Assembly: GCA_001873665.1 (NCBI GenBank)
Contig: MNZO01000020.1
Location: forward strand, 1 to 37,692
Reading direction: 5' to 3'
Length of the DNA: 37,692 bases
From: Candidatus Shapirobacteria bacterium CG2_30_35_20
Lineage (GTDB): Bacteria; Patescibacteriota; Microgenomatia; UBA12405
Below the pieces are notes generated by a model. The model was given only the letters and a program-made list of their open reading frames with translations. It was not told where the DNA came from and made no database searches. The translations under genes and the position numbers were made by a program. This document shows positions 13,498 through 30,858 of the stretch, in pieces. Position 1 is the stretch's first letter, and each line of letters opens with the position of its first letter.

Positions 13498-15444
13498 ATG
13501 GAAATACCACAAGAGATAAATCAAAACCCTGTTATTAAACCCAATAAGTTAAAAATTACTAGCAACAAGAAACTGCGATTGATTTTGATTGTTTTTGGCA
13601 TAATTGTTGGCATTATAATTTTGCTCTCAACCATAACTTACGTTTTTGCCTATTTACCAGCTCAAAAACTATCAAATCAAATAAATCTCACCAAGATTGA
13701 AGCCGAAAAACTTAAACAAAACATTTCCGACAAAGATATCGCTAGTGCCAAAAATCAATTGATTACCATCCAGAGTAACCTTGACAAAGTATCGCAAAAT
13801 CTTTCAACATTTTCTTATTTTAATTACTTACCTTATTTAAAAAATTATTATCAAGATAGTCAAAGAATGGTTAAAATTGCCAACAATGGAGTCGAGATTG
13901 GAAACACCCTTATTAAGGCCATTGAACCATATCAAGATTTTCTCGGGCTAAAAGGTGCCGCCACCTCTAGTGCCAAAACCACCGAAGACAGGATTGCTTT
14001 TTTGACTCAATCTATTGAAAGTATTTTGCCCCATTTGGACTTAATTGAAACCAAAATTAAGGAAATCGATAAACTGCTTTCACAAATCGACATCACTAAA
14101 TATCCCGAAACTTACCAAAACTATAATCTCAAAAACATCTACAATCAATCCCGACAAGTAATTAGTAAAACCCAAAAACTCGTCTCCGATGGTCGACCAA
14201 TTCTCACCAAAAGTTCTTGGCTTCTTGGCAAAGATAAACCCCGCAATTACCTAGTTATTTTTCAAAATGACGGCGAGCTTCGCCCCAGTGGAGGTTTTTG
14301 GACTGCCTACGCCACGATTAAAATTGACAAAGGCAAGGTAATCCCCGGACCAGCCAGCAATATTTACGATCTTGATGATGCAATTTCCAGTACCACTCCC
14401 GCACCTCGAATTATTAAGTCGTACCATATCAATGTCCCCTACCTAAATCTTCGGGACAATAATTTATCTCCCGATTTTCCCACTGATGCCCAAATATTTT
14501 TAGATACCTTTTACAAAGCTACCAAGGGAAAAACTTCCTACGATGCTGTTATTGCCCTCGATACCAATGTTCTAGTTGATATGGTCACCATCCTGGGTAA
14601 ATTAGATACTCGTGTTGGCACGTTTACTACCAAACCCGACAAACGCTGTGACGGCTGTCCTAAAATTATTTATGATTTGGAATGGATTTCTGGACGCCCC
14701 AGAAATTTCATTGAAAAAAACCGCAAAGATTTTCTCGCCCCATTAATGTCAGCGCTTCTTAACAACGCCATGGGTGCCGGCAAAGATTATTTGCCAAAAC
14801 TAGGACAAGCATTTTTTACCAATATTTTTGAAAAACATATTCTGTTTTATTTTCCCGACTCCGATATGCAAAAAGCCGCCAACATGGCCAATATCTCAGG
14901 CAGTATCACCCAAACACCTCCCGAAATTGACTATCTCCATTTAAATGATGCTAATTTTGCCTCTGCTAAAAGCAATATTTTTATTACCCAAAAAATTAAA
15001 CACGAAATATCGGTTGCCAACAATAAAATAGAACATAAATTTGCCATTACTTACACCAACCCCTCCAAGGCTTCCAACTGCAATTTAGAAAAGGGGGATT
15101 TATGTCTCAATGCTGCCAAATATCGAAATTTGTTCAGATTGTATACCCCAATCGGTAGCAAATTAATCAAAATGACTGGCTCCGAAGTCGAACCAGTTCT
15201 TTACCAAGAGTTAGGCAAACAAGTTTTTGAAGGTTTTTATGGTGACAAATATCCACTTTATCCAGTATCGAGCAATAAAGTTACCATTCAATATCAAACT
15301 AGTGTTACCCCTCACAAAAACTACAATTTATTACTCCAAAAACAGCCAGGAACTAAGGCTATCCCCTACGAAATTTTTCTCAATGGTAAACTCATTGAGA
15401 CTTTTTCCTGGACAGGTGATAAAAATATAAAATTATCTCTGTGA
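13498..15444 (+). CDS. DUF4012-like envelope protein (N-terminal TM anchor)
   Basis: YLVIFQNDGELRPSGGFWTAYATIKI matches the DUF4012 core as I recall it. It has an N-terminal TM and coiled-coil region. ATG 13498. Confidence 0.65.
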   Translation: MEIPQEINQNPVIKPNKLKITSNKKLRLILIVFGIIVGIIILLSTITYVFAYLPAQKLSNQINLTKIEAEKLKQNISDKDIASAKNQLITIQSNLDKVSQNLSTFSYFNYLPYLKNYYQDSQRMVKIANNGVEIGNTLIKAIEPYQDFLGLKGAATSSAKTTEDRIAFLTQSIESILPHLDLIETKIKEIDKLLSQIDITKYPETYQNYNLKNIYNQSRQVISKTQKLVSDGRPILTKSSWLLGKDKPRNYLVIFQNDGELRPSGGFWTAYATIKIDKGKVIPGPASNIYDLDDAISSTTPAPRIIKSYHINVPYLNLRDNNLSPDFPTDAQIFLDTFYKATKGKTSYDAVIALDTNVLVDMVTILGKLDTRVGTFTTKPDKRCDGCPKIIYDLEWISGRPRNFIEKNRKDFLAPLMSALLNNAMGAGKDYLPKLGQAFFTNIFEKHILFYFPDSDMQKAANMANISGSITQTPPEIDYLHLNDANFASAKSNIFITQKIKHEISVANNKIEHKFAITYTNPSKASNCNLEKGDLCLNAAKYRNLFRLYTPIGSKLIKMTGSEVEPVLYQELGKQVFEGFYGDKYPLYPVSSNKVTIQYQTSVTPHKNYNLLLQKQPGTKAIPYEIFLNGKLIETFSWTGDKNIKLSL

Positions 15445-16049: not shown

Positions 16050-17369
16050 ATGTCAAAAAACAACCAAAATAATCTCACGACCAAAATAGTTTCGCTGTGT
16101 AAACGTCGTGGCATAATTTTTCAAAACAGTGAAATATATGGTGGAATCCAGGGGTTTTATGATTATGGTCCGATCGGCTCTTTAATGAAAAACAACTGGA
16201 AAAACTTATGGTTAAGAGAAAACATTCAAAAACGTGACGATGTTGTTTTAATTGATGGGTCGATTATTACCCATCCGACTGTTTGGCAAGCTTCTGGTCA
16301 TGTCAAAAATTTTGCCGATATTATGGTCGAATGCAAATCTTGCCACAAACGCTTTCGTCCCGATTTAATTGATAATGCCACAAAATGCCCGAAATGTGGG
16401 GGAGAATTTACTGAAGGTAAAAAATACAATATTTTATTTGAAACCAATGTTGGTGTTATCGAAAGTGAAAAAACACACACTTATTTACGCGGTGAAGCTT
16501 GCCAAACAATTTATCTAGACTTTAAAAACATCATCGACTCCACTCGTGTCAAAATTCCATTTGGCATTGCCCAAATTGGAAAAGCTTTTAGAAACGAAAT
16601 TACCCCAAAAAATTTCCTTTATCGCACTCGCGAATTTGAACAATGGGATATTCAATATTTTTGCCATCCCACCGATATGGACAAGTTTTATGAATATTGG
16701 AAACAAAATCGCATGGAATGGTACCAATCATTATTTAACAACAAAAAAGATTTAAGATTCCGACAGCACGAAAAAGATGAATTAGCCTTTTACGCCAAAA
16801 AGGCGTTTGACATTGAATATAATGCTCCCTGGGGCTGGGCTGAAATGGAAGGTATTCATTGGCGTTCAGATTATGATTTAACTCAACATCAAACTTTTTC
16901 AAAACAAGACTTATCTTATCGTGACCCAGTTACCAACGAAAAATATTTACCCCACATTGTCGAAACCAGTGGAGGAGTTGATCGTTCTTTTTTCTTTTTA
17001 TTACTTGACGCCTATAGAGAAGAAACTAATGAAAAAGGTGAAATACGTATTTCACTAAAAATTAATCCAAAAGTTTCTGCCTACAAAATGGCAATATTTC
17101 CATTAGCTGCCAATAAACCAGAGTTAGTTGATAAGGCTATAAATTTATACAAATCATTAAAATCAAAATATTCAGTTGATTTTGACGACAGTAGTAATAT
17201 CGGCAAAAAATATCGCCGCCATGACGAAATTGGCACCCCTTGGTGCGTCGTTGTTGATTATCAAACATTGGAAGATAAAACTATTTCTATTCGCGATCGA
17301 GACACTATGGAACAAATTCGTCTACCCATTAGCCAAATTGACGTTTGGTTGGCAAATAAACTACAATAA
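16050..17369 (+). CDS. glyQS: Glycine--tRNA ligase (class II, alpha2 GlyQS type)
   Basis: 439 aa with RGIIFQNSEIYGG, GKAFRNEITP, FRTREFEQ and ETSGGVDR motifs. Confidence 0.95.
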   Translation: MSKNNQNNLTTKIVSLCKRRGIIFQNSEIYGGIQGFYDYGPIGSLMKNNWKNLWLRENIQKRDDVVLIDGSIITHPTVWQASGHVKNFADIMVECKSCHKRFRPDLIDNATKCPKCGGEFTEGKKYNILFETNVGVIESEKTHTYLRGEACQTIYLDFKNIIDSTRVKIPFGIAQIGKAFRNEITPKNFLYRTREFEQWDIQYFCHPTDMDKFYEYWKQNRMEWYQSLFNNKKDLRFRQHEKDELAFYAKKAFDIEYNAPWGWAEMEGIHWRSDYDLTQHQTFSKQDLSYRDPVTNEKYLPHIVETSGGVDRSFFFLLLDAYREETNEKGEIRISLKINPKVSAYKMAIFPLAANKPELVDKAINLYKSLKSKYSVDFDDSSNIGKKYRRHDEIGTPWCVVVDYQTLEDKTISIRDRDTMEQIRLPISQIDVWLANKLQ

Positions 17370-17893: not shown

Positions 17894-18742
17894 GTGAAAT
17901 ACCATATTCCAGTATTGTTGTCTGAAGTAATCACTCGATTTAATCCACAGCCAGGAAATATATATATTGATAGCACTGTTGGTCACGGTGGCCATAGTCA
18001 AGAACTACTAAGTAAAGGGGCTATCGTCTATGGTATCGACGCTGATAAAAATAATTTAACAATTACTACCGATAGAATAAATAACCCAAATTTTCACCCA
18101 ATTTTAGGTAATTTTAAAGACATAAAAAAAATCTGGCAAAAATATATCAACGCTCCCGTCGACGGTATTCTCGCTGATTTAGGGCTTAGCAATAATCAAC
18201 AAAGTCAAGAAGGTAGGGGGTTTTCCTTTAACGATAGTCAATCTCTTGATATGCGTCTTGACCCTAATACCCAAGAAACTTCTGCCAAAGATATCATTAA
18301 TAGTTATGACGAAACTCAACTATATTTACTATTTTCCAAAATCGCTCAAGAACAATTTGCCCTCCCCCTAGCCCAAAAAATTATCACCTCTCGACAACAA
18401 TCAACCATTAAAACCGGAAAGCAACTAGCCGATATTATTCATGAGTATTATCAATCAAGACATATTCGAAAAGCGATTGACCCCGCCACCAAAATTTTTA
18501 TGGCTCTACGCATCGAAACCAATAATGAATTTGAAAATCTAAATATCTTTCTTAATGACAGTCAAAAAATAATTAAAACAAACGGAATTATTGCCATTAT
18601 TTCTTTTCACTCGAGCGAAGACCGAATTGTTAAAAATTTTATTAAAAAAAATAATTTTACGACCATTCGTTTTTTGCCAACCAAAGATGAAATAAAAACT
18701 AACCATCTCTCCCGCTCCGCCGTTCTTAGAGTTTACAGCTAA
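17894..18742 (+). CDS. rsmH: 16S rRNA (cytosine1402-N4)-methyltransferase RsmH/MraW
   Basis: YHIPVLL start, DSTVGHGGHS and ADLGLS motifs. It is the first gene of the dcw cluster. GTG start. Confidence 0.9.
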   Translation: MKYHIPVLLSEVITRFNPQPGNIYIDSTVGHGGHSQELLSKGAIVYGIDADKNNLTITTDRINNPNFHPILGNFKDIKKIWQKYINAPVDGILADLGLSNNQQSQEGRGFSFNDSQSLDMRLDPNTQETSAKDIINSYDETQLYLLFSKIAQEQFALPLAQKIITSRQQSTIKTGKQLADIIHEYYQSRHIRKAIDPATKIFMALRIETNNEFENLNIFLNDSQKIIKTNGIIAIISFHSSEDRIVKNFIKKNNFTTIRFLPTKDEIKTNHLSRSAVLRVYS

Positions 18743-19017
18743 GCTACTGCCAATATTTGTTCAATTTTTGCGACCTTAACTTCAAGATTGTCAAATTCAT
18801 CACTGGTCGGGGCATCATCTTCGAGATATGCCAGTGATTTCCCCAGTTTATCAATTCGGTCATTAACTCCTTTAAATCCTTTATCCATTTTTTTATCTAA
18901 ACCATCCATTCTATCGCTGAGTTTTTTATCAAGTTTATCAATTCTTGCTAACAAGTCGCCTCTCATAGTACTCTGGCCATTAACCAACATTTGAAACATT
19001 TTTTGAATATCGTCCAT
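18739..19017 (-). CDS. Small coiled-coil protein, unknown function
   Basis: 92-aa ORF filling an otherwise empty 340-nt gap. It has repeated DKLDKKL / DGLDKKM / DRIDKLGKSL heptad-like units. Its stop overlaps the rsmH stop. Confidence 0.5.
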   Translation of the reverse strand: MDDIQKMFQMLVNGQSTMRGDLLARIDKLDKKLSDRMDGLDKKMDKGFKGVNDRIDKLGKSLAYLEDDAPTSDEFDNLEVKVAKIEQILAVA

Positions 19018-19083
19018 ACCATTACTCTAAAGTATTTTTTCTGTTAACGCAATGACATACACACCATACTATACTATTAATAT

Positions 19084-19281
19084 ATGCCCAACCGAATTTT
19101 ACTCACCGTCACCCTTAGCCTGTTTTTTTTTCAATTAGCATTTTCGATAATCTATTCCAATATTATCATCAAAATAAACCAAACGTTTTTTGAAAAAAAC
19201 AAAGTTTACACCAATTTATCATCAGTTAATCAGAATTTAGAACTCCAATATGTCCAAAAATACGCCATCAACCAACAATAA
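19084..19281 (+). CDS. FtsL-like small bitopic membrane protein
   Basis: 65 aa with one TM segment plus a short coiled-coil tail. It sits between rsmH and ftsI and overlaps the ftsI start. Confidence 0.45.
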   Translation: MPNRILLTVTLSLFFFQLAFSIIYSNIIIKINQTFFEKNKVYTNLSSVNQNLELQYVQKYAINQQ

Positions 19282-20836
19282 TCGACTCAAAGCTGTCAAT
19301 CTGACAATCATCTTTGCCTTTACCATCGTCATGGCGCGACTTTTTTACTGGCAAATAATTATGGGTCCCACCATTCGGGCCGATAACATATCCCAAAATT
19401 CAAAACTACAAAAAATTCTCCCTAAAACTGGCAAGATTTTATCATCAGACAATTTTCCCTTAAGTCTTGGCGTAAAAGCCTATAAACTATCAATTTATAA
19501 ACCAAATTTAAAAATAAACTTAAATGAATTATTCAAAAAAATCGACAAAATAAAACCCAATACCATTCTCAACAACAACATTCAAATTAATAATCTCAAC
19601 AATCCTCAGATCAAATGGGTCACCCTCAATGGTACGTTTGACCAAATTCAAAAACAACAACTAACAATCCCTGGAATCGAATTTGAAGAAAGTAGTTTTC
19701 GCTATTACCCCGAAGGTAATTTGGCCAAAAACATCATCACCAATTTAGAATCGTTTTATCGTCGAATCCTATTTGGAAAAACTGGTTTTTCACTTTCATC
19801 TATTGATGGTACTGGTCAAACCATATTAACCAAACGAAACTGGCGTCAATCAGAAACCGACGGTCAAGATATTAAAACTAGTTTAAACCGCCAAGTACAG
19901 ATAATTTTGACCGACACTCTCACAAAAGGTCTTGAGATTTATCAGGCCAAAAGTGCTTCAGGCACAATTATTGACCCAAGTACAGGTCTCATAATTGCTA
20001 TGTCCTCAATCCAGTCTGACACCACCCCCAATAATAATATTGACAATATTAGTAATTTGTTTGAACCGGGATCTATATTCAAACCACTAGTTGTCGCTAT
20101 GGCTCTCGACAGTAAAAAAATTGATACCGATTTTATTTGTTCTGATTGTTCAAAACCTCGAGTTTTGGGCCAATACACCATTAATAATTGGGATAATACC
20201 TTTCACCCCAATTCAACCCTAAGTGACATTATTAAAAACTCAGATAATATTGGAATGAGCAATATTATTCAAAGACTAGATAAAGATAATTTTATAAAAT
20301 ACTTTCACGCCCTTAAACTCGACTCAAAAAGCGAAATCGACTTAATCGGCGAATCGATTTCTCCCCCCAAAAAATTCATAGCCGATATTGATTTGGCCAC
20401 CGCCTCTTTTGGTCAGGGACTAGCCGTCAATGAATTACAAATGGTTCAAGCCTTTAACACCCTGGCCAATCAGGGCAAATTAATCTCTGGCCATTTCAAC
20501 ACCCAAATATTACCCAGCCCTATAAATGTTTTTTCACCAGAAACCGTAATAAAAGTTATTGATATCCTAAAATATGCCGTAGAAAACAGCGCCATCAAAT
20601 CCCTAAAACCAAAAAATCTCGAAGTTTGTGCTAAAAGTGGTACTGCCCAAATCGCCATTGGAGGTCAATACAGTGACACCAACACTATTGGTTCATATGT
20701 TGGCTTTTCCCCCTGTACATCACCCAAATTTACCATGATTATCACTATTAACCAACCCCAAAAGGGGGAGTGGGGTTCATCCACCGCCGCCCCCCTCTGG
20801 TTTGAAATTGCCACAAAAATCTCCCCTTTGTTATAA
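19250..20836 (+). CDS. ftsI: Class B penicillin-binding protein / peptidoglycan D,D-transpeptidase FtsI
   Basis: N-terminal TM segment, then SxxK (GSIFKP), SxN (NSDNIG) and K[ST]G (AKSGTA) motifs. Confidence 0.85.
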   Translation: MSKNTPSTNNNRLKAVNLTIIFAFTIVMARLFYWQIIMGPTIRADNISQNSKLQKILPKTGKILSSDNFPLSLGVKAYKLSIYKPNLKINLNELFKKIDKIKPNTILNNNIQINNLNNPQIKWVTLNGTFDQIQKQQLTIPGIEFEESSFRYYPEGNLAKNIITNLESFYRRILFGKTGFSLSSIDGTGQTILTKRNWRQSETDGQDIKTSLNRQVQIILTDTLTKGLEIYQAKSASGTIIDPSTGLIIAMSSIQSDTTPNNNIDNISNLFEPGSIFKPLVVAMALDSKKIDTDFICSDCSKPRVLGQYTINNWDNTFHPNSTLSDIIKNSDNIGMSNIIQRLDKDNFIKYFHALKLDSKSEIDLIGESISPPKKFIADIDLATASFGQGLAVNELQMVQAFNTLANQGKLISGHFNTQILPSPINVFSPETVIKVIDILKYAVENSAIKSLKPKNLEVCAKSGTAQIAIGGQYSDTNTIGSYVGFSPCTSPKFTMIITINQPQKGEWGSSTAAPLWFEIATKISPLL

Positions 20837-20837
20837 T
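20829..20837 (+). promoter_or_regulatory. Extended -10-like TGtTATAAT, 11 nt upstream of the murE ATG
   Basis: tgttataat overlaps the ftsI stop codon. Confidence 0.3.
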
Positions 20838-20848
20838 ATGTAACCAAA

Positions 20849-22117
20849 ATGTATAAAAAAATATATAAGATTTGTTTTCAAAAAATTAAAAATATATTCT
20901 GGCACCTTCCCAAAAGTATTTTTTACAATATCTATTTCGGTTTCCCTCATCGTAATCTTACCTTAATTGGTGTTACAGGAACCGACGGCAAAACCACCTC
21001 TGTCAACCTAATTCACCAAGCATTACTTAATGCCAATATAAAATCAGGTCTAATTTCTACCCTCGGTGCCAAAATAGGTGACCAAAGCATCTCTATTGGC
21101 TTACACACCACCTCTCCCGATTCATCTATTGTTCAAAAAATATTTGCCCAAATGGTCACCGAGGGTATGACTCACGCCATTGTTGAAGTCACTGCTCATG
21201 CTATCGATCAATATCGTTATTTCGGTTGTAATTTTGCCATTTGCGGTATAACTAACACCTCCCACGAACATCTCGATGATTTTTTAAATATGTCATCATA
21301 TATCAACACCAAAGCAAAACTTTTTTCCAATTCCAATATTGCCATATTAAACAAAGACGATTCCTCATTTTCTCAAATTATTGTCCCACCCACCACTAAA
21401 ATCTTTTCCTACAGCATTGACAAAAAATCCGATTATCAAGCCAAAAACATTAATTTAAATAACAAATTTCTTGAGTTTACCGTCAACAAAACGACATACA
21501 AAACTAATAGTAACTACCGCTACCAAATTTATAATATTCTCTTAGTCCATTCAATTTTAAATCAACTTAAAATCGACCCAAATTTATTGCCCAAATTAAT
21601 ACTAAATTTTCCTGAAATAAAAGGCCGTCGAGAAATTGTTAAAAACAATCTCCACATCCAATGTATTGTTGATTTTGCCCACACCCCCAACGCCTTATTC
21701 CAAACCCTATCATCTTTACACTCAACAACTAAAAACAAATTGATATGCATTTTTGGTGCCACTGGTGGTCGCGACCAGACCAAACGCCCACTTATGGGTA
21801 AAGTTGTTTCCCAAAATTGTGACATCGCTATTGTTACCGCCGATGATACTCGTAATGAAAATATCATCGAAATAAACAAACAAATCATTTCCGGTTTTGA
21901 TCAAAAACAAATTGACAACAAAAAATTTGCTTATTACAACATCCCCAATCGCCAAGATGCTTTCAACCTAGCCGTTAGTTTGGCGAAATCAGGCGATACA
22001 ATTATTGCCTGTGGTAAAGGTCATGAAACCTCAATTCTCCACGGTAAAACCGAATACCCCTGGTCAGAAAGTGATGCCTTTAAAACCGCTTTTAGAAATA
22101 AAGACCAAAATGTTTAA
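20849..22117 (+). CDS. murE: Mur ligase, MurE-like (UDP-MurNAc-L-Ala-D-Glu: diamino acid ligase), short N-terminus
   Basis: GVTGTDGKTTS P-loop, EVTAHAIDQ and NTSHEHLD motifs. C-terminal TADDTRNE lies where MurE has DNPR. Confidence 0.7.
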   Translation: MYKKIYKICFQKIKNIFWHLPKSIFYNIYFGFPHRNLTLIGVTGTDGKTTSVNLIHQALLNANIKSGLISTLGAKIGDQSISIGLHTTSPDSSIVQKIFAQMVTEGMTHAIVEVTAHAIDQYRYFGCNFAICGITNTSHEHLDDFLNMSSYINTKAKLFSNSNIAILNKDDSSFSQIIVPPTTKIFSYSIDKKSDYQAKNINLNNKFLEFTVNKTTYKTNSNYRYQIYNILLVHSILNQLKIDPNLLPKLILNFPEIKGRREIVKNNLHIQCIVDFAHTPNALFQTLSSLHSTTKNKLICIFGATGGRDQTKRPLMGKVVSQNCDIAIVTADDTRNENIIEINKQIISGFDQKQIDNKKFAYYNIPNRQDAFNLAVSLAKSGDTIIACGKGHETSILHGKTEYPWSESDAFKTAFRNKDQNV

Positions 22118-22706
22118 CCAACAAACTCAAAACACTATTAAAGAAAACTATAATCACGGTCTTTTACCACAAAGAAATAATAAAGATTACTGGTACTCCG
22201 ACAGTTCTAGTCGTTCCAACTTATCCAAATTTAACTTATCCTCCGAAAATCGCCGAATTATCAGCAAAACTAACCATTATAAATATCAGGTAATCCCCTT
22301 ATCCCAATTTAAATATTCCCTCTTTATTCAAAAAACAATTTTTAAATGGATTAAAGAAATTGGGTGGAATTTCCCTATCTCCTCGGTCAAAACCATTTTT
22401 ACTAATCATATTTTTAATTACGTCTACGTTTGGCAAGATTTAGATGGTAACGTCGTGGCTTATTCTATTTGCTACTTTTCAAAAAATATTTCTCATATCG
22501 CCTATGTCTTTTACAATCCAAAATTATCTCATAATAATTTGCCAATCAGACTAACTCTACAAACTATTATTGATAGCCATGATAAAAATTTAAATTATTG
22601 TTATCTTGGTCGTTTTAATCCAAAAACAAAACTGGGTTATTATAAACGTGAGCTTCCAGGCTTTGAATATTATAAAAATAATAATTGGATAAAATACACT
22701 CTATGA
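22110..22706 (+). CDS. ATE/Bpt-family (arginyl/leucyl-tRNA--protein transferase-like) acyltransferase homolog
   Basis: SRSNLSKFNLSSENRRIISK, GNVVAYSICYF..ISHIAYVFYNP and NYCYLGRFNPKTKLGYYKRELPGFEYYKNNNW match the ATE_C/Bpt pattern (SavYtFydP ... YLGYwi..MsYKarfrP.E...W). ATG 22110 overlaps the murE stop, and its stop overlaps the next ATG. Confidence 0.6.
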   Translation: MFNQQTQNTIKENYNHGLLPQRNNKDYWYSDSSSRSNLSKFNLSSENRRIISKTNHYKYQVIPLSQFKYSLFIQKTIFKWIKEIGWNFPISSVKTIFTNHIFNYVYVWQDLDGNVVAYSICYFSKNISHIAYVFYNPKLSHNNLPIRLTLQTIIDSHDKNLNYCYLGRFNPKTKLGYYKRELPGFEYYKNNNWIKYTL

Positions 22707-23980
22707 ATATACATATTTTAGGTATTTGTGGCAAAATGACCGCCCCTCTCGCCATTGCTCTAAAAAAACAAGGTCATTTTATTTCAGGTTCTGATCAAGA
22801 CAAAATTTACCCTCCATTTTCTACCACTTTATCCCAGGCTAAAATACCAGTCAACAAACTTCACCCAAAACCAAATTTATATATCATTGGCTCAGCTTTT
22901 AAAAATCAAAACAAATTGAACACCGAATTTGAATCAATTAAAAAGTCAAATATTCCCTATATTTCCGCCACCAAATATATTGCCAAACATTTAATTAAAC
23001 CAAACAGTATTTTAGTTGCCGGTAGTTATGGCAAAAGTTCAATTTCTGCTATGTTGGCCTTTATTTTAAAAGATTCCAAACATAATCCCTCGTATTTATT
23101 TGCTGCCGAATCTTTAAACAAATTTCCCTCACTTTCTTTTACCGACAGTGATTGGTCAATTTGTGAAGCCGATGAATCCATCAATGGATTAGATACTCAA
23201 GCCAAATTTTTATATTACCCGATCAAATATTTAATTTTGACCAGTGCTCAATGGGAACACAAAGAATCATATAAAACCGAGCTGGACAATTTTAACGCCT
23301 TTAAAAAACTGATTATCAATATCCCCAAAGACGGATTACTCATCTACAATCAGCTCGATACATCAATCAACCCACTATTAAAATTTACCAAATGTCAGGC
23401 AATTCCTTATACTATAAATAAAATTAATCATCCCTTCCTGTTTGGGGCAGCCTTTACTAATAACTTTGCCGCCGTTAAAATTTTATGTGATTATCTTAAA
23501 ATATCAACAAAAAAAATATTAGAATACAAAGGGTTAAAAAATAGATTAGAAATAGTTGCTAATAAAAAAAATATTATTTTTATCGATGATTTTGCTCAAT
23601 CTGCTCCACGTATTCAAGCCTCAATTTCTGCAATAAAAAACAAATATCCAAAACGACCAGTAAAAGTAATTCTCGAACCACACGCTAGTTTTTTACAATA
23701 TAAAAGCTCTATAACAGAGTTATTTGAACCATTAATTAATGTTTCACAAATATTCTTAACAAAAATTTCCTTTTCTAAAAACAAAGACAAAACCACTCGT
23801 ATTAGTTTTGCTGACTATAAAACCATTTTTGGTGATAAGATTAATTATCTGCCCATTAATTCTGACCTCATTACTACCGTAATTTCATCACTTAAACCCA
23901 ACGACATTTTAATTCGCTTTTCTTCTGGTGGTTTAGATGGCCAAAAATCTTTTCATAAAATCATTAATTTCAAAACATAA
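22703..23980 (+). CDS. Mur ligase of the MurC/Mpl type
   Basis: The N-terminus IHILGICGKMTAPLAIALKKQGHFISGSDQDKIYPPFST resembles the Mpl/MurC Rossmann N-domain. P-loop is AGSYGKSS. Confidence 0.75.
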   Translation: MNIHILGICGKMTAPLAIALKKQGHFISGSDQDKIYPPFSTTLSQAKIPVNKLHPKPNLYIIGSAFKNQNKLNTEFESIKKSNIPYISATKYIAKHLIKPNSILVAGSYGKSSISAMLAFILKDSKHNPSYLFAAESLNKFPSLSFTDSDWSICEADESINGLDTQAKFLYYPIKYLILTSAQWEHKESYKTELDNFNAFKKLIINIPKDGLLIYNQLDTSINPLLKFTKCQAIPYTINKINHPFLFGAAFTNNFAAVKILCDYLKISTKKILEYKGLKNRLEIVANKKNIIFIDDFAQSAPRIQASISAIKNKYPKRPVKVILEPHASFLQYKSSITELFEPLINVSQIFLTKISFSKNKDKTTRISFADYKTIFGDKINYLPINSDLITTVISSLKPNDILIRFSSGGLDGQKSFHKIINFKT

Positions 23981-23982
23981 TT

Positions 23983-25017
23983 ATGATCCATCTATATTTA
24001 GGATTATTGTTATTTTCTTTTATAGTCACCAGTATTTTAGTTGTACCTTTTATTAACCTACTTTATCGATTAAAATTTCAACGTCAGAGTCAAAAAACAC
24101 TTGATGTTCAAAACAATCATACTCCTATATTTGACAAATTTCACAACCCCAAGGCCGGTACCCCTGTCGGTGGGGGACTATTAATCATAATTTCAGTTTC
24201 TCTTCTTTTTGCTAGTTTACTACCCATATTACAATTTTCCAAAATTTTTATCTCCAGTAACTATAAATTAAATCTAGAACTGGAGGTAATCTTTTTTACC
24301 TTTATTAGTTTTGGCCTACTCGGTCTTTATGATGATATTCTCAAATTTTTTAATTTTCAAAAAAGTGGATTTTTTGGATTAAGATTAAAACATAAGTTAA
24401 TTCTCCAATTACTTGCCTCTGGATTTATATCTTTATTAATTTATTTTCGACTTGGTACTGATTTCATCTATATTCCATTTCTGGGAGCCGTTAAATTAGG
24501 GATTTTATTTGTGCCTATTTCCACTTTAATCATCGCCACCTTTGCCAATTTTTTTAATATTACCGATGGTCTTGATGGTCTATCTTGCGGAATTTTAGTA
24601 ATATCTCTTTTTGCTTTTTGGATTTTAGCTGGCTCGTCTCTTGACACCCCCGTTTCCCTATTTATTTCCCTTTGGATTGGGGCATTAATTGCCTTTTTAT
24701 ATTTTAACGTCTATCCAGCTCGTTTATGGCTAGGCGACGTTGGTTCGATGTCATTTGGTGCCACCATTGCCGTCATCGCCGTCTTGTTGGGTAAAATTAT
24801 TCCACTATTCGTTGTTGGTCTACCATTCATCGTTGAAGGAGTTAGCAGTGGTTTACAAATATTATCAAAAATTTATTTTAAAAAGAAACTTTTTCCCGCC
24901 GCCCCCATCCACCTCACCTTACAAAAAGCTGGTTGGGAGGAACCAAAAATTGTTTTTAGAGCTTGGCTAGCCACTATGATATTAGCTATTTTTGCACTAT
25001 GGTTAGGAATAAACTAA
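23983..25017 (+). CDS. mraY: Phospho-N-acetylmuramoyl-pentapeptide transferase MraY
   Basis: Polytopic protein with NITDGLDGL, GDVGSMSFG and APIHLTLQKAGW motifs. Confidence 0.9.
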   Translation: MIHLYLGLLLFSFIVTSILVVPFINLLYRLKFQRQSQKTLDVQNNHTPIFDKFHNPKAGTPVGGGLLIIISVSLLFASLLPILQFSKIFISSNYKLNLELEVIFFTFISFGLLGLYDDILKFFNFQKSGFFGLRLKHKLILQLLASGFISLLIYFRLGTDFIYIPFLGAVKLGILFVPISTLIIATFANFFNITDGLDGLSCGILVISLFAFWILAGSSLDTPVSLFISLWIGALIAFLYFNVYPARLWLGDVGSMSFGATIAVIAVLLGKIIPLFVVGLPFIVEGVSSGLQILSKIYFKKKLFPAAPIHLTLQKAGWEEPKIVFRAWLATMILAIFALWLGIN

Positions 25018-25520
25018 ACGAATATTTAGGTATTCCCTATTTTTCCAATGTTGGCAAACATAAAGTAATGTCTCGAAATAATGCCCTAGTTGGAAAGGGA
25101 ACCGCCAAAGAAATTGCTCTCCAAACTATCGAGTTTGCCAATCAACAAAATATTAAATTATTAGACCTAACTCCAACCCAAATTTATAATTTTCAAAAGA
25201 AAAACCATTTAGGAATAGATTGTTCCGGTTTGGTTTGCCACCTATTAGGTTTAAAAGTTGACGTCCGTAAAATATCTGCCAACATGCTTACATCTCTCCC
25301 AATTTCCAAACAAATTAAAACTTTAAAATCAAATGATCTAATTCGCCAAAAAAACGGCCACCATGTTTTATTAGTTTTGTCGGTCGACAAAGATTTAGTT
25401 ACATATGTTCACTCATCACTGTCAAAACATGGTGTCATTATTGAAACAAAAAATATCAAAGACATCCCCAATGACAGTTTCTGGCGAGTTACTTCTCTTC
25501 CACCAAAATCTGGTACTTAA
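24999..25520 (+). CDS. NlpC/P60 (C40) family cysteine peptidase-like protein
   Basis: GIDCSGLVCHLL (catalytic Cys context), GHHVLLV and VHSS. The start is uncertain: ATG 24999 or 25068, and the track gives TTG 24963. Confidence 0.6.
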   Translation: MVRNKLNEYLGIPYFSNVGKHKVMSRNNALVGKGTAKEIALQTIEFANQQNIKLLDLTPTQIYNFQKKNHLGIDCSGLVCHLLGLKVDVRKISANMLTSLPISKQIKTLKSNDLIRQKNGHHVLLVLSVDKDLVTYVHSSLSKHGVIIETKNIKDIPNDSFWRVTSLPPKSGT

Positions 25521-25656
25521 GGGGGGATAGCGATAGCACTTCCACCTCAGTCCCACATTCTTGACATTCAAGAATATCACCCACAGCTGAGGTATTTTCA
25601 CCTTTAATTTCTGTCCCACAATCAGGACACATGATTTTTTGGTCTGTTTGCTTCAT
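25489..25656 (-). CDS. LysW-like zinc-ribbon protein (amino-group carrier protein-like)
   Basis: MCPDCGTEI...GDILECQECGTEVEVLSLSPL...VEEK parallels the LysW pattern CPxCGxE...GE..xCxxCGxELEV..LDPL + acidic tail. Alternative starts are at 25677 and 25632. Confidence 0.5.
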   Translation of the reverse strand: MKQTDQKIMCPDCGTEIKGENTSAVGDILECQECGTEVEVLSLSPLKYQILVEEK

Positions 25657-25670
25657 AATATATCTATTAT

Positions 25671-26471
25671 ATGACACCTTTAATCAAAATAGGAGACGTC
25701 TATTTAAAACGCGAAGACCAAAACCTCACTGGTAGCGCCAAAGATCGTAGTTTAGAATTACAAATCAAAAATTTAGTAAAAAATAATTATTTGTCTGCAG
25801 TTATATCATCCACTGGTAACGCTGCCATTTCTGCCCAATATTTCTGTCATAAACATGGTATTAACTTAACCGTTTTTGTTTCCCCTCATGCTGACAAATC
25901 AAAACTAAAATTAATTGCCAATTATATAATCAGCAATCGACCCATTTCCGATGCCTTTAAATATGCCAAAAAAAATAAATCATATTTACTTCGCCAATCC
26001 ACCGACCCAACTGCTCTCCGGGGATATAGTCAAATAACCACAGAAATTATTAAACAATGCCCCAATGTTTCATCAATTTTTGTCCCCGTTGGCAGTGGCA
26101 CTACCCTTCTGGGAATCGCTTCAAAATTACCAAACGTAATTCCTATATTTGGGGTACAGCCTGCCTCACATTGCCCCATAGCATCCGTTTTTGATCACGA
26201 TTTTATCCCCGAAAACACCACTATTACCGACGCTCTCAGCGTCAAACTTTTACCCCTAAAGAACAGAGTTATCAAATCTATTACCAATCATTCAGGTCAA
26301 GGAATTGTAGTTCAAAATAAACAAGTCCTACACTCGCAACAATTATTAAAATCAAACAACATTTTTACTTCATCCGAAGGCGCCTTGGCTTTGGCTGGAC
26401 TTAACAAAATAAAATCTCAAATAAATATTGGTAATTTTCCTGTCATTATTTTAACTGGCACCAAAAGATGA
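25671..26471 (+). CDS. PLP-dependent enzyme, fold type II (threonine synthase / cysteine synthase / Ser-Thr dehydratase-racemase superfamily), short (266 aa)
   Basis: LKREDQNLTGSAKDR carries the Schiff-base lysine motif. There is also an STGNAAIS segment and a VGSGTTLLG glycine loop. Confidence 0.75.
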   Translation: MTPLIKIGDVYLKREDQNLTGSAKDRSLELQIKNLVKNNYLSAVISSTGNAAISAQYFCHKHGINLTVFVSPHADKSKLKLIANYIISNRPISDAFKYAKKNKSYLLRQSTDPTALRGYSQITTEIIKQCPNVSSIFVPVGSGTTLLGIASKLPNVIPIFGVQPASHCPIASVFDHDFIPENTTITDALSVKLLPLKNRVIKSITNHSGQGIVVQNKQVLHSQQLLKSNNIFTSSEGALALAGLNKIKSQINIGNFPVIILTGTKR

Positions 26472-27523
26472 ACACAGAACAACTAATTAATAGTTTACCT
26501 GTCGATTTTTTCTTTTTGGTTGTCGACCAAAATCTTGATATCAAATTGCCACAACTAAAAAACTTCTACTCAATTTATAACCCAAATTTATCACAAAAAA
26601 ATAGTGGTTATTTATTATCTCAACCATCAACCACAAATTTTATCAAAAAAACCACTAAAAAATCGGGGCATCAGGCCGCCATTGTCCCCTTTAAACCATC
26701 GGCTAAAATCGACTTAATTTGCAAACAAAATAATTGGCTGCGTATCAGCAATCCAGCCCCTTTAAACCGTCTTTTAGAAGACAAAATCAAATTTCCTAGC
26801 ATTATTAAAAATATTCCCCAATTACCTTTTACCATTGCCCCTTATACCAAGCAAAATGTCGATAAATTAATAAAAAAATATACCAACATAGTTGCCCAAA
26901 CTCATTTCGGCTGGGCTGGTAATAGCACCAAATTAATCACCAAGTACGACCCAACCATTATTCCTCCAAACTCCATATGTAAATTTACTCCCCATCTAAG
27001 GGGTTATTCGCTATTAAACAATTGTTGTTTAACCACAAACGGACTCATTCAAAGTCCTCCAGCCCTCCAATTTACCGGTCTACCCCAATACACCACCAAC
27101 CCTTTTGCCACTGTTGGTCGTCAATGGCCATCAATGGCACCTCAAAAAATTATTAATCAAGTTAAAAATATCACTACTGATTTTGCCAAAATATTAATAA
27201 AAATAAAATATAAAGGTTTTTTTGGACTTGATTTTTTTATCACTCAAAACAAGGTGTACTTACTCGAATGTAACCCTCGCCTAACTGCCTCTTTTGCTTT
27301 TTATACCAATATTGAAATAAAAGCTAAAATCACTCCGCTTTTTTATTATCACCTTTTAGAATTCACAAATCCTACCGTCCCCCCCAAAGAAAATCGCTTT
27401 AATAATAAACAAATTATTGGTTCAGAATTAACAAAACGTGATGAAAGTGGTGTCATTATTAAAAAAATCAATGACTATAAAATATTTTCAAACACTTATA
27501 ATAAAATAAAACTCAATGTCTAA
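26468..27523 (+). CDS. ATP-grasp family ligase, non-canonical
   Basis: LEDKIKF entry motif and C-terminal YKGFFGLDFFITQNKVYLLECNPRLTASF (Mg/ATP-binding E-x-N). ATGA overlap with the PLP gene. Confidence 0.65.
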   Translation: MNTEQLINSLPVDFFFLVVDQNLDIKLPQLKNFYSIYNPNLSQKNSGYLLSQPSTTNFIKKTTKKSGHQAAIVPFKPSAKIDLICKQNNWLRISNPAPLNRLLEDKIKFPSIIKNIPQLPFTIAPYTKQNVDKLIKKYTNIVAQTHFGWAGNSTKLITKYDPTIIPPNSICKFTPHLRGYSLLNNCCLTTNGLIQSPPALQFTGLPQYTTNPFATVGRQWPSMAPQKIINQVKNITTDFAKILIKIKYKGFFGLDFFITQNKVYLLECNPRLTASFAFYTNIEIKAKITPLFYYHLLEFTNPTVPPKENRFNNKQIIGSELTKRDESGVIIKKINDYKIFSNTYNKIKLNV

Positions 27524-28616
27524 AACTTGGCAATATTCTCTATTACTGACCATCATTGGTTTATTTTTCATCTCAATTTCCTCCCTTTTTGAAGCTCAAA
27601 AAAGTCTCGGCGATCCTAATTTTTTTATCAAAAAACAAATTATCTGGATTGCTTTGGGTGTTACTGCCATGTTTATTACTTCAAAAATAAATCTTGATTT
27701 CCTCCGTCGTCATTCTTTCTCTCTGTACGTAATCTCAATTTTACTCCTAATCATTGTTTTTATCCCCAGTCTTGGTCAAAAAACTTTTGGAGCCAGCCGC
27801 TGGATTGATCTTGGTTTCCTCAATTTTCAACCATCTGAATTTTTTAAGTTAATTACCATAATTTTTTTCCCCGCCCTATTTACCAGTCAAGACAAAACTA
27901 GCTTCAAACATTTGCTTATTTTTTTACTTCCGGCTTTTGGATTAATTGTTTTAGAGCCAAACCTAAGTACTGCTCTCTTATGTGCCGCCATTATCATTTC
28001 CACCTATTATTTGTCCGGCGGTCAATTATTGCCAATTTTTATTTCATTTTTGATTTTTTCATTACTGGGAATTGGACTTATTTTTTCCTCGGATTATCGT
28101 AAAGCTCGATTTAATACCCTCGCCAACATTCAGCAAAACAGTAATCTAAATTACCACAGCCAACAAATAATTATTTCTTTGGCCTCAGGGGGATTATCGG
28201 GCAGAGGAATTGCCAACTCTGAACAAAAATACAAATTCTTGCCCAAAATTAGCACTGATTCCATTTTAGCTATAATTGGTGAAGAAACTGGGCTTATTGG
28301 CCTTTTGGCCCTAAGTTATTTATTTATATCTTTTATTACCTATTTGTTTAAATTAGCCAACATGGTTACTTTGTTATTTGAAAAAGTATTAATCTCCTCT
28401 TTTGCTTGCTGGTTATCATATCAAGCTCTCATCAATTTTTCCGCTATTGTTGCTCTAATTCCCTTAACTGGAATTCCTTTTCCTTTTATTTCCTATGGCG
28501 GATCATCACTCCTCTCAATTATGGCTGCTGCTGGACTAGTAGCCAACATTGAGCGAAAATATAGACATGACAAAAAAAATCCTAATCACTGGTACTCACC
28601 TCACTCCCGCCATTGA
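27516..28616 (+). CDS. ftsW: SEDS-family peptidoglycan glycosyltransferase FtsW
   Basis: PKISTDSILAIIGEETG and PLTGIPFPFISYGGSS motifs. It sits upstream of murG in the dcw cluster. Confidence 0.85.
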   Translation: MSKTWQYSLLLTIIGLFFISISSLFEAQKSLGDPNFFIKKQIIWIALGVTAMFITSKINLDFLRRHSFSLYVISILLLIIVFIPSLGQKTFGASRWIDLGFLNFQPSEFFKLITIIFFPALFTSQDKTSFKHLLIFLLPAFGLIVLEPNLSTALLCAAIIISTYYLSGGQLLPIFISFLIFSLLGIGLIFSSDYRKARFNTLANIQQNSNLNYHSQQIIISLASGGLSGRGIANSEQKYKFLPKISTDSILAIIGEETGLIGLLALSYLFISFITYLFKLANMVTLLFEKVLISSFACWLSYQALINFSAIVALIPLTGIPFPFISYGGSSLLSIMAAAGLVANIERKYRHDKKNPNHWYSPHSRH

Positions 28617-29604
28617 GTTAATTAATCAGTTAAAAGAAGATTCCATTAGTTGGGATATCACCTATATCGGTCGAAATTTTAACTCACATGAAAAAATCAG
28701 CCCCTCAATTGAGTCATTAACTATTCCCAAATTAAACATAAAATTCTATGGTTTTCAAAGTGGCAAACTTGATCGTCGCTGGTTACCCAACACCATTGCT
28801 GGCATCCCCCTTACTATCCAATCATTCATTAAAATCAACCATCTCATCAAAAAAATCAGGCCTGATATTGTTGTCTCTTTTGGGGGATATATTTCCGTTC
28901 CCGTTATTATAAATTCTTATTTACAAAAAATCCCCTCAATTACTCACGAACAAACCTCTACTTTAAGCCTATCCACCAAAATAAACTCAAAGTTTACCAA
29001 CAAAGTTGCCCTATCTTTCCCCTCAAACATCAAAAATACTAAATTTGTAGTTACCGGAAATTTATTTTTACGCGAAATCCTAAACTTAAAGTCAGATTAT
29101 TTTGAGTCATTAAATATAAAATTACCCATTATCTATTTAACTGGAGGCAATCAAGGTTCCATTATCTTAAATCAAACACTCCAAAAAATATTACCTACCT
29201 TGACAAAAAAATATTTTGTCGTCCACCAAACTGGAAATCAAAATTTTTCCGCCTCAAAAAATTATTTACCCATAAATTATATTTTTTCTGACAATATTGG
29301 TTGGATATTAAATAACTCCAATATTATCATTAGTCGCGCTGGTGCCAATATTTGCCAAGATATAACCGTATTATCAAAAAAATCAATTTTAATACCCCTT
29401 AAAATCAGTCAGCAGGATGAACAATTAAAAAATGCCAAATTAGTTAAATTAATAATGCCAAAGCTTACCATTATCATTCCTGAAATTAAACTAACTCCTT
29501 CCACCCTCCTCAAATCAATAAATAAATTAATAAAAATAAAAACAAATATCGCAATTAAACCAAAAATAAACTACAGTCTACTAAAACTCATCAAAACACT
29601 TTAA
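28567..29604 (+). CDS. murG: UDP-GlcNAc:lipid I N-acetylglucosaminyltransferase MurG
   Basis: GT28 layout: N-terminal ILITGTHLTPAIEL, TGGNQGS, and ISRAGANI..D. It sits after ftsW in the dcw cluster. I prefer ATG 28567 over the track's TTG 28549. Confidence 0.75.
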   Translation: MTKKILITGTHLTPAIELINQLKEDSISWDITYIGRNFNSHEKISPSIESLTIPKLNIKFYGFQSGKLDRRWLPNTIAGIPLTIQSFIKINHLIKKIRPDIVVSFGGYISVPVIINSYLQKIPSITHEQTSTLSLSTKINSKFTNKVALSFPSNIKNTKFVVTGNLFLREILNLKSDYFESLNIKLPIIYLTGGNQGSIILNQTLQKILPTLTKKYFVVHQTGNQNFSASKNYLPINYIFSDNIGWILNNSNIIISRAGANICQDITVLSKKSILIPLKISQQDEQLKNAKLVKLIMPKLTIIIPEIKLTPSTLLKSINKLIKIKTNIAIKPKINYSLLKLIKTL

Positions 29605-29613
29605 AATAGATAT

Positions 29614-30858
29614 ATGCCTCATTCCCAAACCATCTCCTGTCTTGATATCGGGACAACAAAAATAACCACCATTGTCGCCAATCTGGTTGATGCCAAATCA
29701 ACTCCCAACATTATTGGAGTTTCCTCAACTACGGCCAAAGGATTCAAAAAAGGACAAATAATAAATCTTGAACAAGCCTCTCAAACCATCACTGAGTCAA
29801 TCGAATCTGCCGAAAGAATGGCTAACTTAGAAATTAATCAAGTTTTTGTCTCCCTGACTGCCCCTCATTTCGAATCGATCAATTCTCATGGCGTCGCCGC
29901 TATCAGTAATCCCAATGGAGAAATTACTCAAGATGATATTTTTCGTGCCATCGAAGCCGCCAAAGCTATTACTCTTCCACCCAACAAAGAAATAATTCAC
30001 AGTATCCCCCGTATTTTCACCGTCGACGGTCAAGATGGTGTGGTTGATCCCATCGGTATGAACGGAATTAGGCTAGAAGTTGATTCTCATTTAATTTTAG
30101 CTTCTACCCCCGCCATAAAAAATTTAACCAAATGCCTCAAAGATATCAATATTAAAATAATTTCTCTAGCCTATTCCGGTCTCACCGCCGGCCTTGCCTG
30201 TCTCTCTGAAACAGAAAATGAGCTTGGTGTGGCTCTGGTTGATATTGGCGGATATAACACCAGCGTTACCATTTTTATCGATAATTCACCAGACTGTTCT
30301 TTTTGTCTCCCTGTTGGTGCCAACAATATTACCGCCGACCTAGCTATCGGTTTACGTCTCCCACTCATCGATGCCGAAAAAATTAAAATCAGATTAGCCC
30401 AATTAGCCGACAAAAAAGGATTTAATGATGAAATTGATCTTTCCAATATCGGTATTACTACCGACAACAACAAGCTTTCAATCTCCTCAACCGTTAATGG
30501 TATTATCAAACCCAGAATTGAAGAAATTATTCATCTTGTTTGGCAAGAAATATGTAATCGTGGTTTTCAAAACCTAATTCCTGCCGGAATCGTTCTGACC
30601 GGTGGTGGCGCTGAAACTATTGAACTAAAAAAAATAGCCCAAAAAATTATTCCTTTACCTCTCAGAATTGGTGAACCCCTCAAATTAAATGGCTTGGTTG
30701 ATGACATTGCTTCTCCAGCCTATAGTAGTACCATCGGCTCGATTCTGTTTTTTCAAAACTCCAAACAAATTCCCCATACCTCAAATAAAAAAATAAATAT
30801 CCCTTTCAAACAAATTTTTCAAAAAATTAAAAATTTTTTAGCACCATTATTACCCTAA
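29614..30858 (+). CDS. ftsA: Cell division protein FtsA
   Basis: Actin-fold motifs LDIGTTKI, VDIGGYNT and VLTGGGAE. It sits immediately upstream of ftsZ. Confidence 0.9.
   Translation: MPHSQTISCLDIGTTKITTIVANLVDAKSTPNIIGVSSTTAKGFKKGQIINLEQASQTITESIESAERMANLEINQVFVSLTAPHFESINSHGVAAISNPNGEITQDDIFRAIEAAKAITLPPNKEIIHSIPRIFTVDGQDGVVDPIGMNGIRLEVDSHLILASTPAIKNLTKCLKDINIKIISLAYSGLTAGLACLSETENELGVALVDIGGYNTSVTIFIDNSPDCSFCLPVGANNITADLAIGLRLPLIDAEKIKIRLAQLADKKGFNDEIDLSNIGITTDNNKLSISSTVNGIIKPRIEEIIHLVWQEICNRGFQNLIPAGIVLTGGGAETIELKKIAQKIIPLPLRIGEPLKLNGLVDDIASPAYSSTIGSILFFQNSKQIPHTSNKKINIPFKQIFQKIKNFLAPLLP

Follow-up and report, generated by a model that had tools for sequence, protein, structure and literature searches.

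A divergent relative of arginyl-tRNA-protein transferases encoded between two Mur ligase genes in Shapirobacteria

Results and discussion

A conserved gene between murE and a MurC/Mpl-type ligase

Contig MNZO01000020.1 of Candidatus Shapirobacteria bacterium CG2_30_35_20, analyzed over its full 37,692 nucleotides (the window; G+C content 34.7%), carries a division and cell-wall (dcw) cluster in the order rsmH, ftsL, ftsI, murE, a gene for a homologue of the ATE/Bpt aminoacyl-tRNA transferases, a Mur ligase gene, mraY, an NlpC/P60-like gene, a LysW-like gene on the opposite strand, genes for a pyridoxal phosphate (PLP) enzyme and an ATP-grasp enzyme, ftsW, murG, ftsA and ftsZ. To our knowledge, ATE/Bpt enzymes are known only as modifiers of protein N termini. 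We describe here the ATE-like gene, its relatives and its probable part in cell-wall synthesis. The features at its borders are as follows.

20849-22117, plus strand: MurE, 422 amino acids (aa); 311.7 bits against TIGR01085 (cut-off 257), best match of the diaminopimelate (DAP) type
22110-22117, plus strand: 8-nucleotide overlap of the murE stop (TAA, 22115-22117) with the start of the ATE-like gene
22110-22706, plus strand: ATE/Bpt-like aminoacyl-tRNA transferase homologue, 198 aa; a single domain of the GNAT (Gcn5-related N-acetyltransferase) type plus an N-terminal subdomain
22703-22706, plus strand: ATGA, in which the stop of the ATE-like gene overlaps the ligase start (ATG at 22703)
22703-23980, plus strand: MurC/Mpl-family ligase, 425 aa; 152.5 bits (murC) and 131.5 bits (mpl), both below cut-off

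The 198-codon frame opens with an ATG at 22110 and closes with a TGA at 22704-22706. A first-pass annotation made from the sequence had reported this frame, the 8-nucleotide overlap with murE and the shared ATGA, and every detail proved correct by coordinates; the ATE/Bpt motifs that it quoted are likewise all present in the product (F41-x-x-S44-x-x-x-R48R49, VAYSICYF...SHIAYVFYNP and YCYLGRF...YYKRELPGFEYY...W). Over its 198 residues the protein is identical to CO009_02560, a hypothetical protein of Shapirobacteria bacterium CG_4_8_14_3_um_filter_35 that is annotated at 210 aa by use of a start further upstream. The frame is a real gene under strong purifying selection and no chance open reading frame (ORF), because it has 508 homologues in a word-indexed search, 68 invariant columns in an alignment of 26 sequences (62-84% identity), a ratio of nonsynonymous to synonymous substitution rates (dN/dS) of 0.06-0.11 against its three nearest relatives (with dS saturated), and a median identity across 80 species-level genomes (60.5%) that exceeds those of MurE (57%), FtsI (49%) and the ligase (47%).

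There are no tRNA genes in the window, and thus no dedicated isoacceptor nearby. Scans for promoters (76 matches versus 63.7 +/- 9.5 in shuffled sequence) and terminators (13 versus 11.7 +/- 4.2) did not rise above the shuffled expectation. The best sigma-70-like match of the region, at 20808-20837 on the plus strand, scores 11/12 and has an extended -10 TG; it falls within the end of ftsI, just 5' of murE.

Family assignment by profile and fold

Pfam yielded a single match for the ATE-like protein, ATE_C (PF04377; E 3.7e-5), with 24.8 bits where the gathering score is 25; the same domain was found in 12 of 15 diverse relatives, and several relatives score above the cut-off (27-41 bits). Six NCBIfam arginyltransferase (Bpt) models also matched, five with E values from 4e-7 to 1e-3 and one at 0.22, with scores of 11-30 bits (16-58 bits for relatives) against equivalog cut-offs of 170-358. 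The first-pass annotation had put forward the ATE, Leu_Phe_trans and FemAB families for comparison by hidden Markov model (HMM), and only the first of these came through: FemAB (PF02388), Leu_Phe_trans (PF03588) and ATE_N (PF04376) gave no Pfam match at E <= 1, and DUF2156, the family of the MprF synthase, gave no HMM match. The family is a small one, since a profile search of 1.84 billion cluster representatives returned only 211 relatives at E <= 1e-3, including longer forms of 215-275 aa.

Profile-profile alignment with hhalign placed the ATE-like family against a Pseudomonas-type Bpt over 177 columns (96.9% probability, E 1.7e-10); the Bpt sequence used for comparison was validated with NF002342 (449 bits versus a cut-off of 205). 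An AlphaFold2 model of the protein (predicted local distance difference test score (pLDDT) 89.5, predicted template modelling score (pTM) 0.87) was compared with the PDB by Foldseek, and the top matches were human, yeast and K. lactis ATE1 (E 4.5e-9; query template modelling score (TM) 0.60-0.74), followed by MprF and aminoacyl-phosphatidylglycerol synthases and then by Weissella FemX, all of them aminoacyl-tRNA transferases. Aat, the L/F-transferase, was not among the 50 best matches. Sequence searches of the PDB with a single-family profile, a broad profile and a distant member returned no ATE1, Bpt or Fem chain, so that within this database the link to ATE1 and Fem comes from the comparison of folds.

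The homology to ATE/Bpt claimed in the first-pass annotation is therefore borne out by ATE_C, NCBIfam, hhalign and Foldseek alike, and the structural relation to FemX that it proposed reappears in the Foldseek match. Its description of the protein as the C-terminal catalytic domain of these enzymes holds in part: ATE_C is present, but the rear of ATE_N, with the basic helix SENRR, is kept as well, and what is missing is the zinc-cysteine front part. By its profile scores the protein is a divergent relative of ATE/Bpt rather than a Bpt equivalog, and the best explanation is that it belongs to the ATE/Bpt branch of the GNAT-fold aminoacyl-tRNA transferases, shortened at the N terminus and without the zinc finger.

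Two other groups of this superfamily act in or near the cell envelope. With FemX, FemAB and MurM (PF02388) the ATE-like protein shares the superfamily, the proposed chemistry, an aromatic residue before the catalytic Lys and an association with peptidoglycan genes; unlike them, it has no FemAB match, lacks a coiled-coil and has a single GNAT-type domain where they have two, it belongs to the ATE/Bpt branch, and the Foldseek match to Weissella FemX is only partial (E 6e-6; TM 0.55 by query and 0.35 by target). The C-terminal domain of MprF and aminoacyl-phosphatidylglycerol synthases (DUF2156) is a structural neighbor (E ~1e-6, query TM ~0.5) that also depends on tRNA and contains both a conserved Lys and a basic helix, whereas the ATE-like protein is soluble and has neither the membrane flippase domain nor a sequence-level match, and the acceptor of MprF is a lipid head group, not an amine.

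Residues for tRNA use are kept and the acceptor side differs

We mapped residues by one hhalign profile-profile register plus spacing, not by superposition. Y178-K179 is invariant across the whole ATE-like family and aligns to Y216-K217 of Bpt. The Bpt pair corresponds to Y303-K304 of klAte1 and F304-K305 of FemX, which are essential, and mutating either klAte1 residue abolishes activity (PMC9351520); by alignment, Y178-K179 corresponds to this catalytic dyad. A second invariant element, the helix S45-E-N-R48-R49 plus K53 (residues 45-53 in the model), has its R48, R49 and K53 aligned to K84, R85 and R89 of Bpt and is the apparent counterpart of the basic alpha3 tRNA-binding helix.

The N-terminal part is different. 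The alignment begins at Bpt residue 42, so that the first ~40 residues of Bpt are absent; the 8-residue Cys loop (Bpt 59-66, PHCQNCNA) is deleted, Bpt C67 aligns to D31, all four zinc cysteines are gone, and no conserved Cys occurs in the N-terminal part of the family in the 26-sequence alignment. R50 and R51 of Bpt, which belong to the positively charged GFRRSG pocket for the acidic N terminus (R80 in klAte1), align to L19 and N23, with an invariant R22 adjoining in a 3-residue insertion. Given the kept dyad and helix and the lost cysteines and GFRRSG arginines, the machinery for using aminoacyl-tRNA appears to have been retained and the acceptor side remodelled. Bpt/ATE1 (PF04376 plus PF04377; PRK01305) is still the closest family by both sequence profile and fold, with the GNAT core, the Tyr-Lys dyad and the basic helix for the tRNA acceptor arm in common and a size, for bacterial Bpt, that is near to that of the ATE-like protein. 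The latter departs from it in the missing N-terminal residues, loop and cysteines (zinc or Fe-S ligands), in the replaced arginine positions, in scores below every Bpt equivalog cut-off, and in a genomic context of cell-wall synthesis, not proteolysis.

Spacing also predicts a donor pocket formed by I130, L148, T152 and C164 (S255, S273, E277 and Y289 in klAte1; A, A, Q and V in Bpt), which has no acidic residue and is bulkier than that of Bpt. The first-pass annotation had pointed to the proximity of the glycyl-tRNA synthetase gene, and glyS indeed lies ~4.7 kb upstream (16050-17369), next to the dcw cluster; it is also directly upstream of the cluster in 65 Shapirobacteria loci and in lineages whose ATE-like proteins are less than 30% identical, with L081, L111 and L112 among the loci that show this. 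This recurrence is still only a possible hint at a Gly-tRNA donor, or a conserved neighborhood and nothing else. Because the predicted pocket has no acidic residue and glyS is conserved beside the cluster, a small neutral donor residue (Gly or Ala) is a weak lead.

Some relatives also match the generic GNAT models Acetyltransf_6 and Acetyltransf_1, which raises the question of whether the protein still uses tRNA at all; it could instead acylate a precursor amine in an acyl-CoA-dependent manner, for example, or serve as a non-catalytic scaffold of a Mur complex, and the fusions to a Mur ligase described below could then be structural. Such a loss of tRNA use seems very unlikely to us in view of the invariant Tyr-Lys dyad and basic helix, which are specific to aminoacyl-tRNA transferases, of the strong purifying selection on the catalytic motifs, and of the best structural matches, all of which are tRNA-dependent enzymes.

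Conservation of gene order and fusions to the ligase

We scanned one genome per GTDB species and found a relative of the ATE-like gene in 190 genomes; 80 loci were fetched, 79 of which extend upstream. All 79 carry murE, the ATE-like gene and the ligase gene in this order on one strand. The spacing from murE to the ATE-like gene has a median of -4 nucleotides, with an overlap in 46 of 79 and no more than 30 nucleotides in 78; from the ATE-like gene to the ligase gene the median is +4 nucleotides, with an overlap in 21 loci and no more than 120 nucleotides in any. Translational coupling, which the first-pass annotation had proposed from the overlaps in the window, is thus matched by tight spacing throughout. 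The triad is also present in loci L087-L089 and in the Dojkabacteria contig L093, at 29-48% identity. In L093 it is separate from mraZ-rsmH, and the genes after it are a YfiH/PgeF-type gene (Cu-oxidase_4, 3355-4179), murB and murA. Enzymes of the YfiH/PgeF family edit mis-made UDP-MurNAc-aminoacyl products of MurC.

A metagenome scan yielded 80 further loci; it was run with a Dojkabacteria-type alignment, the broad family alignment being too divergent, and the genes were classified by blastp against a small reference set, with an NCBIfam check on six proteins only. The dominant order is murB (minus strand), ATP-grasp, NlpC-like, mraY, ATE-like, ligase, LysW-like (minus strand), PLP enzyme and murD (minus strand). 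A MurC/Mpl-type ligase comes next after the ATE-like gene in 51 of the 64 metagenomic loci that extend far enough, and mraY directly precedes it in 45 of 66; most relatives from outside the Shapirobacteria have the ATE-like gene directly 3' of mraY. MurD (TIGR01087 as best family, 128.7 bits) and MurF (TIGR01143, 276 and 237 bits) adjoin the module in related metagenomic lineages. Some lineages have mraY, the ATE-like gene and the ligase gene without murE, and the Dojkabacteria-like loci L098-L103 have murE and the ATE-like gene without the ligase. The placement between two Mur ligases noted in the first-pass annotation therefore describes the window and all 79 upstream-reaching loci, but neither ligase is an obligatory neighbor across lineages.

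In two lineages the ATE-like protein and the ligase are fused. In one fusion (P0122; 630-654 aa, seven members from ENA, JGI and NCBI), which is found in the context murE-fusion-murA-mraY, a Pro/Ser linker leads from the ATE-like domain to the ligase; the second, independent one (L115, 694 aa) belongs to an mraY-type lineage. Known Mur chimeras comprise MurE-MurF, MurC-Ddl, MurC-MurB, MurG-MurC, MurD-FtsW and MraY-MurG, with no aminoacyl-tRNA-transferase-like partner listed, and fused Mur enzymes need not act at consecutive steps (PMC10214165). The recurrence of the arrangement in related genomes, which the first-pass annotation had suggested surveying, thus extends to distant lineages and to two independent ligase fusions.

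These data bear on the alternative that the protein is a classical Bpt that aminoacylates protein N termini for the N-degron pathway and owes its dcw position to an accident of genome compaction. Bpt/ATE is its nearest sequence family, automatic pipelines label some relatives arginyl-tRNA-protein transferase, and a few relatives do lie outside cell-wall clusters. We nevertheless hold this to be very improbable: the linkage to cell-wall genes survives several rearrangements and two fusions, the scores of 11-30 bits fall far short of equivalog cut-offs of 170-358, and neither the zinc cysteines nor the GFRRSG arginines are retained in the alignment. ClpS, ClpA and Aat were also not found among the window ORFs of at least 100 aa, in keeping with the first-pass remark that no N-degron machinery is nearby.

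Many of the GTDB records with Shapirobacteria-type synteny (L003-L079) are titled 'uncultured Gammaproteobacteria bacterium', and one (L054) 'Candidatus Methanoperedens sp.'; mislabelling or contamination of the metagenome-assembled genomes is the probable cause. Two family members stand in other surroundings: one overlaps the gatC stop downstream of murJ, outside wall clusters (L091, 4725-5737), and the other (P0180; L095, 8001-10430; 809 aa) carries a PPDK_N plus PEP-utilizers module as a fusion partner.

Proposed role in peptidoglycan precursor synthesis

Given the family, the residues and the context, we consider it likely that the ATE-like protein is an aminoacyl-tRNA transferase dedicated to peptidoglycan, one that probably attaches an amino acid to a precursor of the cell wall by a route so far undescribed; a full-text literature search turned up no paper that connects the family with the cell wall or with Mur ligases. 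We infer an aminoacyl-tRNA donor, a peptidoglycan-precursor acceptor and the amine acylated as follows. The basic helix (R48, R49 and K53) would dock the acceptor end of the aminoacyl-tRNA, a free amine of the precursor would attack the aminoacyl ester, and Tyr178-Lys179 would stabilize the tetrahedral intermediate. The likeliest acceptor would be the diamino acid that MurE adds at position 3, through its side-chain amine, either in UDP-MurNAc-peptide or in lipid I/II; acylation there would give a branched stem peptide. The enzyme, presumably co-translated with MurE and the MurC/Mpl-type ligase and fused to the ligase in some lineages, would act within an assembly of Mur enzymes.

The first-pass annotation had suggested a tRNA-dependent branch or cross-bridge, and the position-3 amine would be its most economical site. 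Acceptors of the aminoacyl group are amines only, and in the cytoplasmic pathway the diamino acid at position 3 offers the obvious one in its side chain; a Fem-like branch fits because murE makes this amine and mraY uses the finished nucleotide precursor. Relatives with MurD and MurF next to the module seem to have the whole main-chain pathway, and an extra enzyme fits a side-chain role. We put forward the Fem-like branch on a peptidoglycan precursor tentatively, with a little less than even confidence, and several points weigh against it. MurE best matches DAP-type models, and DAP-type walls are usually unbranched, although LL-DAP-Gly walls exist. The commonest partner, the MurC/Mpl-type ligase, catalyses the opening step of the stem peptide rather than one at position 3, and a Fem-like role alone leaves its repeated fusion unexplained, although chimeras of Mur enzymes from non-consecutive steps are known (PMC10214165). 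One GNAT-type domain, against two in FemX, leaves the mode of UDP-MurNAc-peptide binding unexplained as well. The window protein's own Pfam score is marginally below the gathering threshold, and relatives occur outside wall clusters: in WWE3 beside a DnaJ-like gene, in one case near two class IIb aminoacyl-tRNA synthetase genes, and in another in a Bacteroidota-like context.

The partner ligase contains all three Mur ligase domains and an N-terminal signature IHILGICG...GSD...YPP, and the closest sequence to it in the PDB is 3hn7 (95.6 bits), although it falls below both the MurC and the Mpl equivalog cut-offs. An attempt to call it MurC or Mpl failed, the orthologue in L090 scoring 249.6 versus 245.9 and the C-domain alone 29.4 (Mpl) versus 25.8 (MurC), and by these scores it appears equidistant from the two. 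MurE lacks the ~70-residue N-terminal UDP-binding domain 1, its residue 29 aligning with position 100 in E. coli MurE (1e8c) and with position 138 in the M. tuberculosis enzyme. We down-weighted this truncation as a sign of a non-nucleotide substrate, as MurF in a related lineage (L145, 1047-2345) is N-terminally truncated like the window MurE, and the Dojkabacteria-like MurE is collinear with the latter; the truncation of MurE and MurF looks like lineage-wide streamlining. In L112/L114 (6436-10004) there are two MurE paralogues, one full-length (495 aa) and one without domain 1 (421 aa), both of which pass the TIGR01085 cut-off; the stop of the 421-aa form overlaps the start of the ATE-like gene, and a minus-strand NlpC-like gene separates the two paralogues.

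Because ATE1 and Bpt act on N-terminal Asp and Glu (PMC9351520), the peptide itself could be the acceptor before it is joined to the sugar nucleotide. In that case Ala-tRNA would supply an L-Ala that the ATE-like enzyme attaches to D-Glu, or to a gamma-D-Glu-diamino-acid peptide, at the free alpha-amine, and the Mpl-like ligase would load the product onto UDP-MurNAc, with a cytoplasmic NlpC/P60 enzyme trimming salvaged host muropeptides and the stem peptide coming partly from aminoacyl-tRNA. A conserved, twice-fused partner that resembles Mpl as much as MurC would suit such a scheme, as would the co-occurring NlpC/P60-like gene without an obvious signal peptide and the lack of murD, murF, ddl and a second murC in the window's dcw cluster; in related lineages, however, MurD and MurF homologues adjoin the module. 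An adjacent MurE without its UDP-binding domain, and a lineage with a truncated MurE besides a full-length one, could likewise point to peptide substrates, but MurF is truncated too in a related lineage, so truncation looks like general streamlining. The Bpt GFRRSG Arg pair that reads the acidic N terminus aligns to L19 and N23, some lineages have murE and the ATE-like gene without the ligase, and several unprecedented activities would be needed at once. We regard this peptide-first route as rather unlikely, and equally think it unlikely, if anything slightly more so, that the ATE-like enzyme and its repeatedly fused MurC/Mpl-type ligase build or repair the main-chain stem peptide from aminoacyl-tRNA in a manner coupled to salvage of host wall peptides. 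If the latter were true, tRNA would be the source not only of a side branch but of some of the core peptidoglycan stem in these host-dependent bacteria.

The remainder of the dcw cluster and a recurring module

Downstream of the ligase gene the cluster continues with the following genes.

23983-25017, plus strand: MraY
24963-25520, plus strand: NlpC/P60-like protein with a GIDCSGL catalytic motif and no obvious signal peptide; it co-occurs with the ATE-like gene in distant lineages
25489-25677, minus strand: LysW-like zinc-ribbon protein, 62 aa; PF21344 at 41.4 bits (gathering score 27)
25671-26471, plus strand: fold-type II PLP enzyme (Thr dehydratase, Thr synthase or Ser racemase-like), a module member
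26468-27523, plus strand: ATP-grasp carboligase with a generic PurK or biotin-carboxylase-like fold, a module member

Within the window's dcw cluster (17894-32082), murD, murF, ddl, murB and a second murC are all missing; where murF and murD would usually lie there are the ATE-like and ligase genes, and the NlpC, LysW, PLP and ATP-grasp genes. The ligase gene and mraY are 2 nucleotides apart in the window (23980-23983), where murA is absent from the cluster, whereas in 56 of 65 related genome loci this gap exceeds 1 kb, and in the examined loci L081-L083 it holds murA (EPSP_synthase).

Six genes, those for the ATP-grasp enzyme, the NlpC/P60-like protein, the ATE-like protein, the MurC/Mpl-like ligase, the LysW-like protein and the PLP enzyme, recur as a set in at least two gene orders, across lineages whose ATE-like proteins are only ~30% identical (window 24963-27523; L090 3564-11151). 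The LysW-like gene, on the minus strand inside an otherwise one-strand cluster, adjoins the PLP enzyme gene in distant lineages too. Its product ends in Lys, whereas LysW ends in Glu; in 60 genome loci the C terminus is almost always ...E(L/V)(I/V)EEK, and in L090 it is ...VDEGK. The ATP-grasp enzyme could not be assigned as Ddl-like or LysX-like, its model (pLDDT 91.8) having matched only the generic PurK, biotin carboxylase and PurT folds. The ATP-grasp and PLP enzymes might be non-orthologous stand-ins for Ddl and alanine racemase.

That the LysW-like, ATP-grasp, PLP and NlpC-like genes accompany the ATE-like gene in two widely differing arrangements invites the thought that the acceptor lies within the module, as the C-terminal Lys or another amine of the LysW-like carrier, or as a carrier-bound intermediate; the ATE-like, ATP-grasp, PLP and NlpC/P60 enzymes would then jointly make an unusual wall amino acid or peptide. 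ATE/Bpt enzymes are protein-modifying by ancestry, and carriers of the LysW type operate with ATP-grasp ligases, as in the LysW/LysX pathway, but here the ATP-grasp fold match is a generic one. The chemistry would be without precedent, the ligase gene intervenes between the ATE-like and LysW-like genes, which are on opposite strands, and the Dojkabacteria-like loci with murE and the ATE-like gene have no module genes nearby. An acceptor of this kind is accordingly doubtful, and we would call it quite unlikely.

In its composition (ATP-grasp, PLP, NlpC/P60-like and LysW-like genes), the module suggests that precursor synthesis in the candidate phyla radiation (CPR) departs from the textbook pathway at several steps. 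A third lineage, one that descends from the ATE/Bpt branch, seems to have entered the wall pathway in several CPR phyla (Shapirobacteria, Dojkabacteria and Parcubacteria-type lineages), with a Mur ligase fusion in two of them. If the protein does act on peptidoglycan, members of one enzyme superfamily would have been recruited convergently, a branched or otherwise unusual wall would be expected in these organisms, for which wall chemistry was never measured, and the gene would offer a concrete, expressible 198-aa enzyme with defined candidate substrates.

At the other end of the window, positions 18-15441 hold a surface-polysaccharide cluster with glycosyltransferases of families GT4 and GT2, a Wzy-like protein, a sugar-phosphate transferase, a nucleotidyl transferase and a DUF4012 protein. 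Inside this cluster lie an AbiEii toxin-like gene (1385-2008) and an NYN-domain gene (9020-9556).

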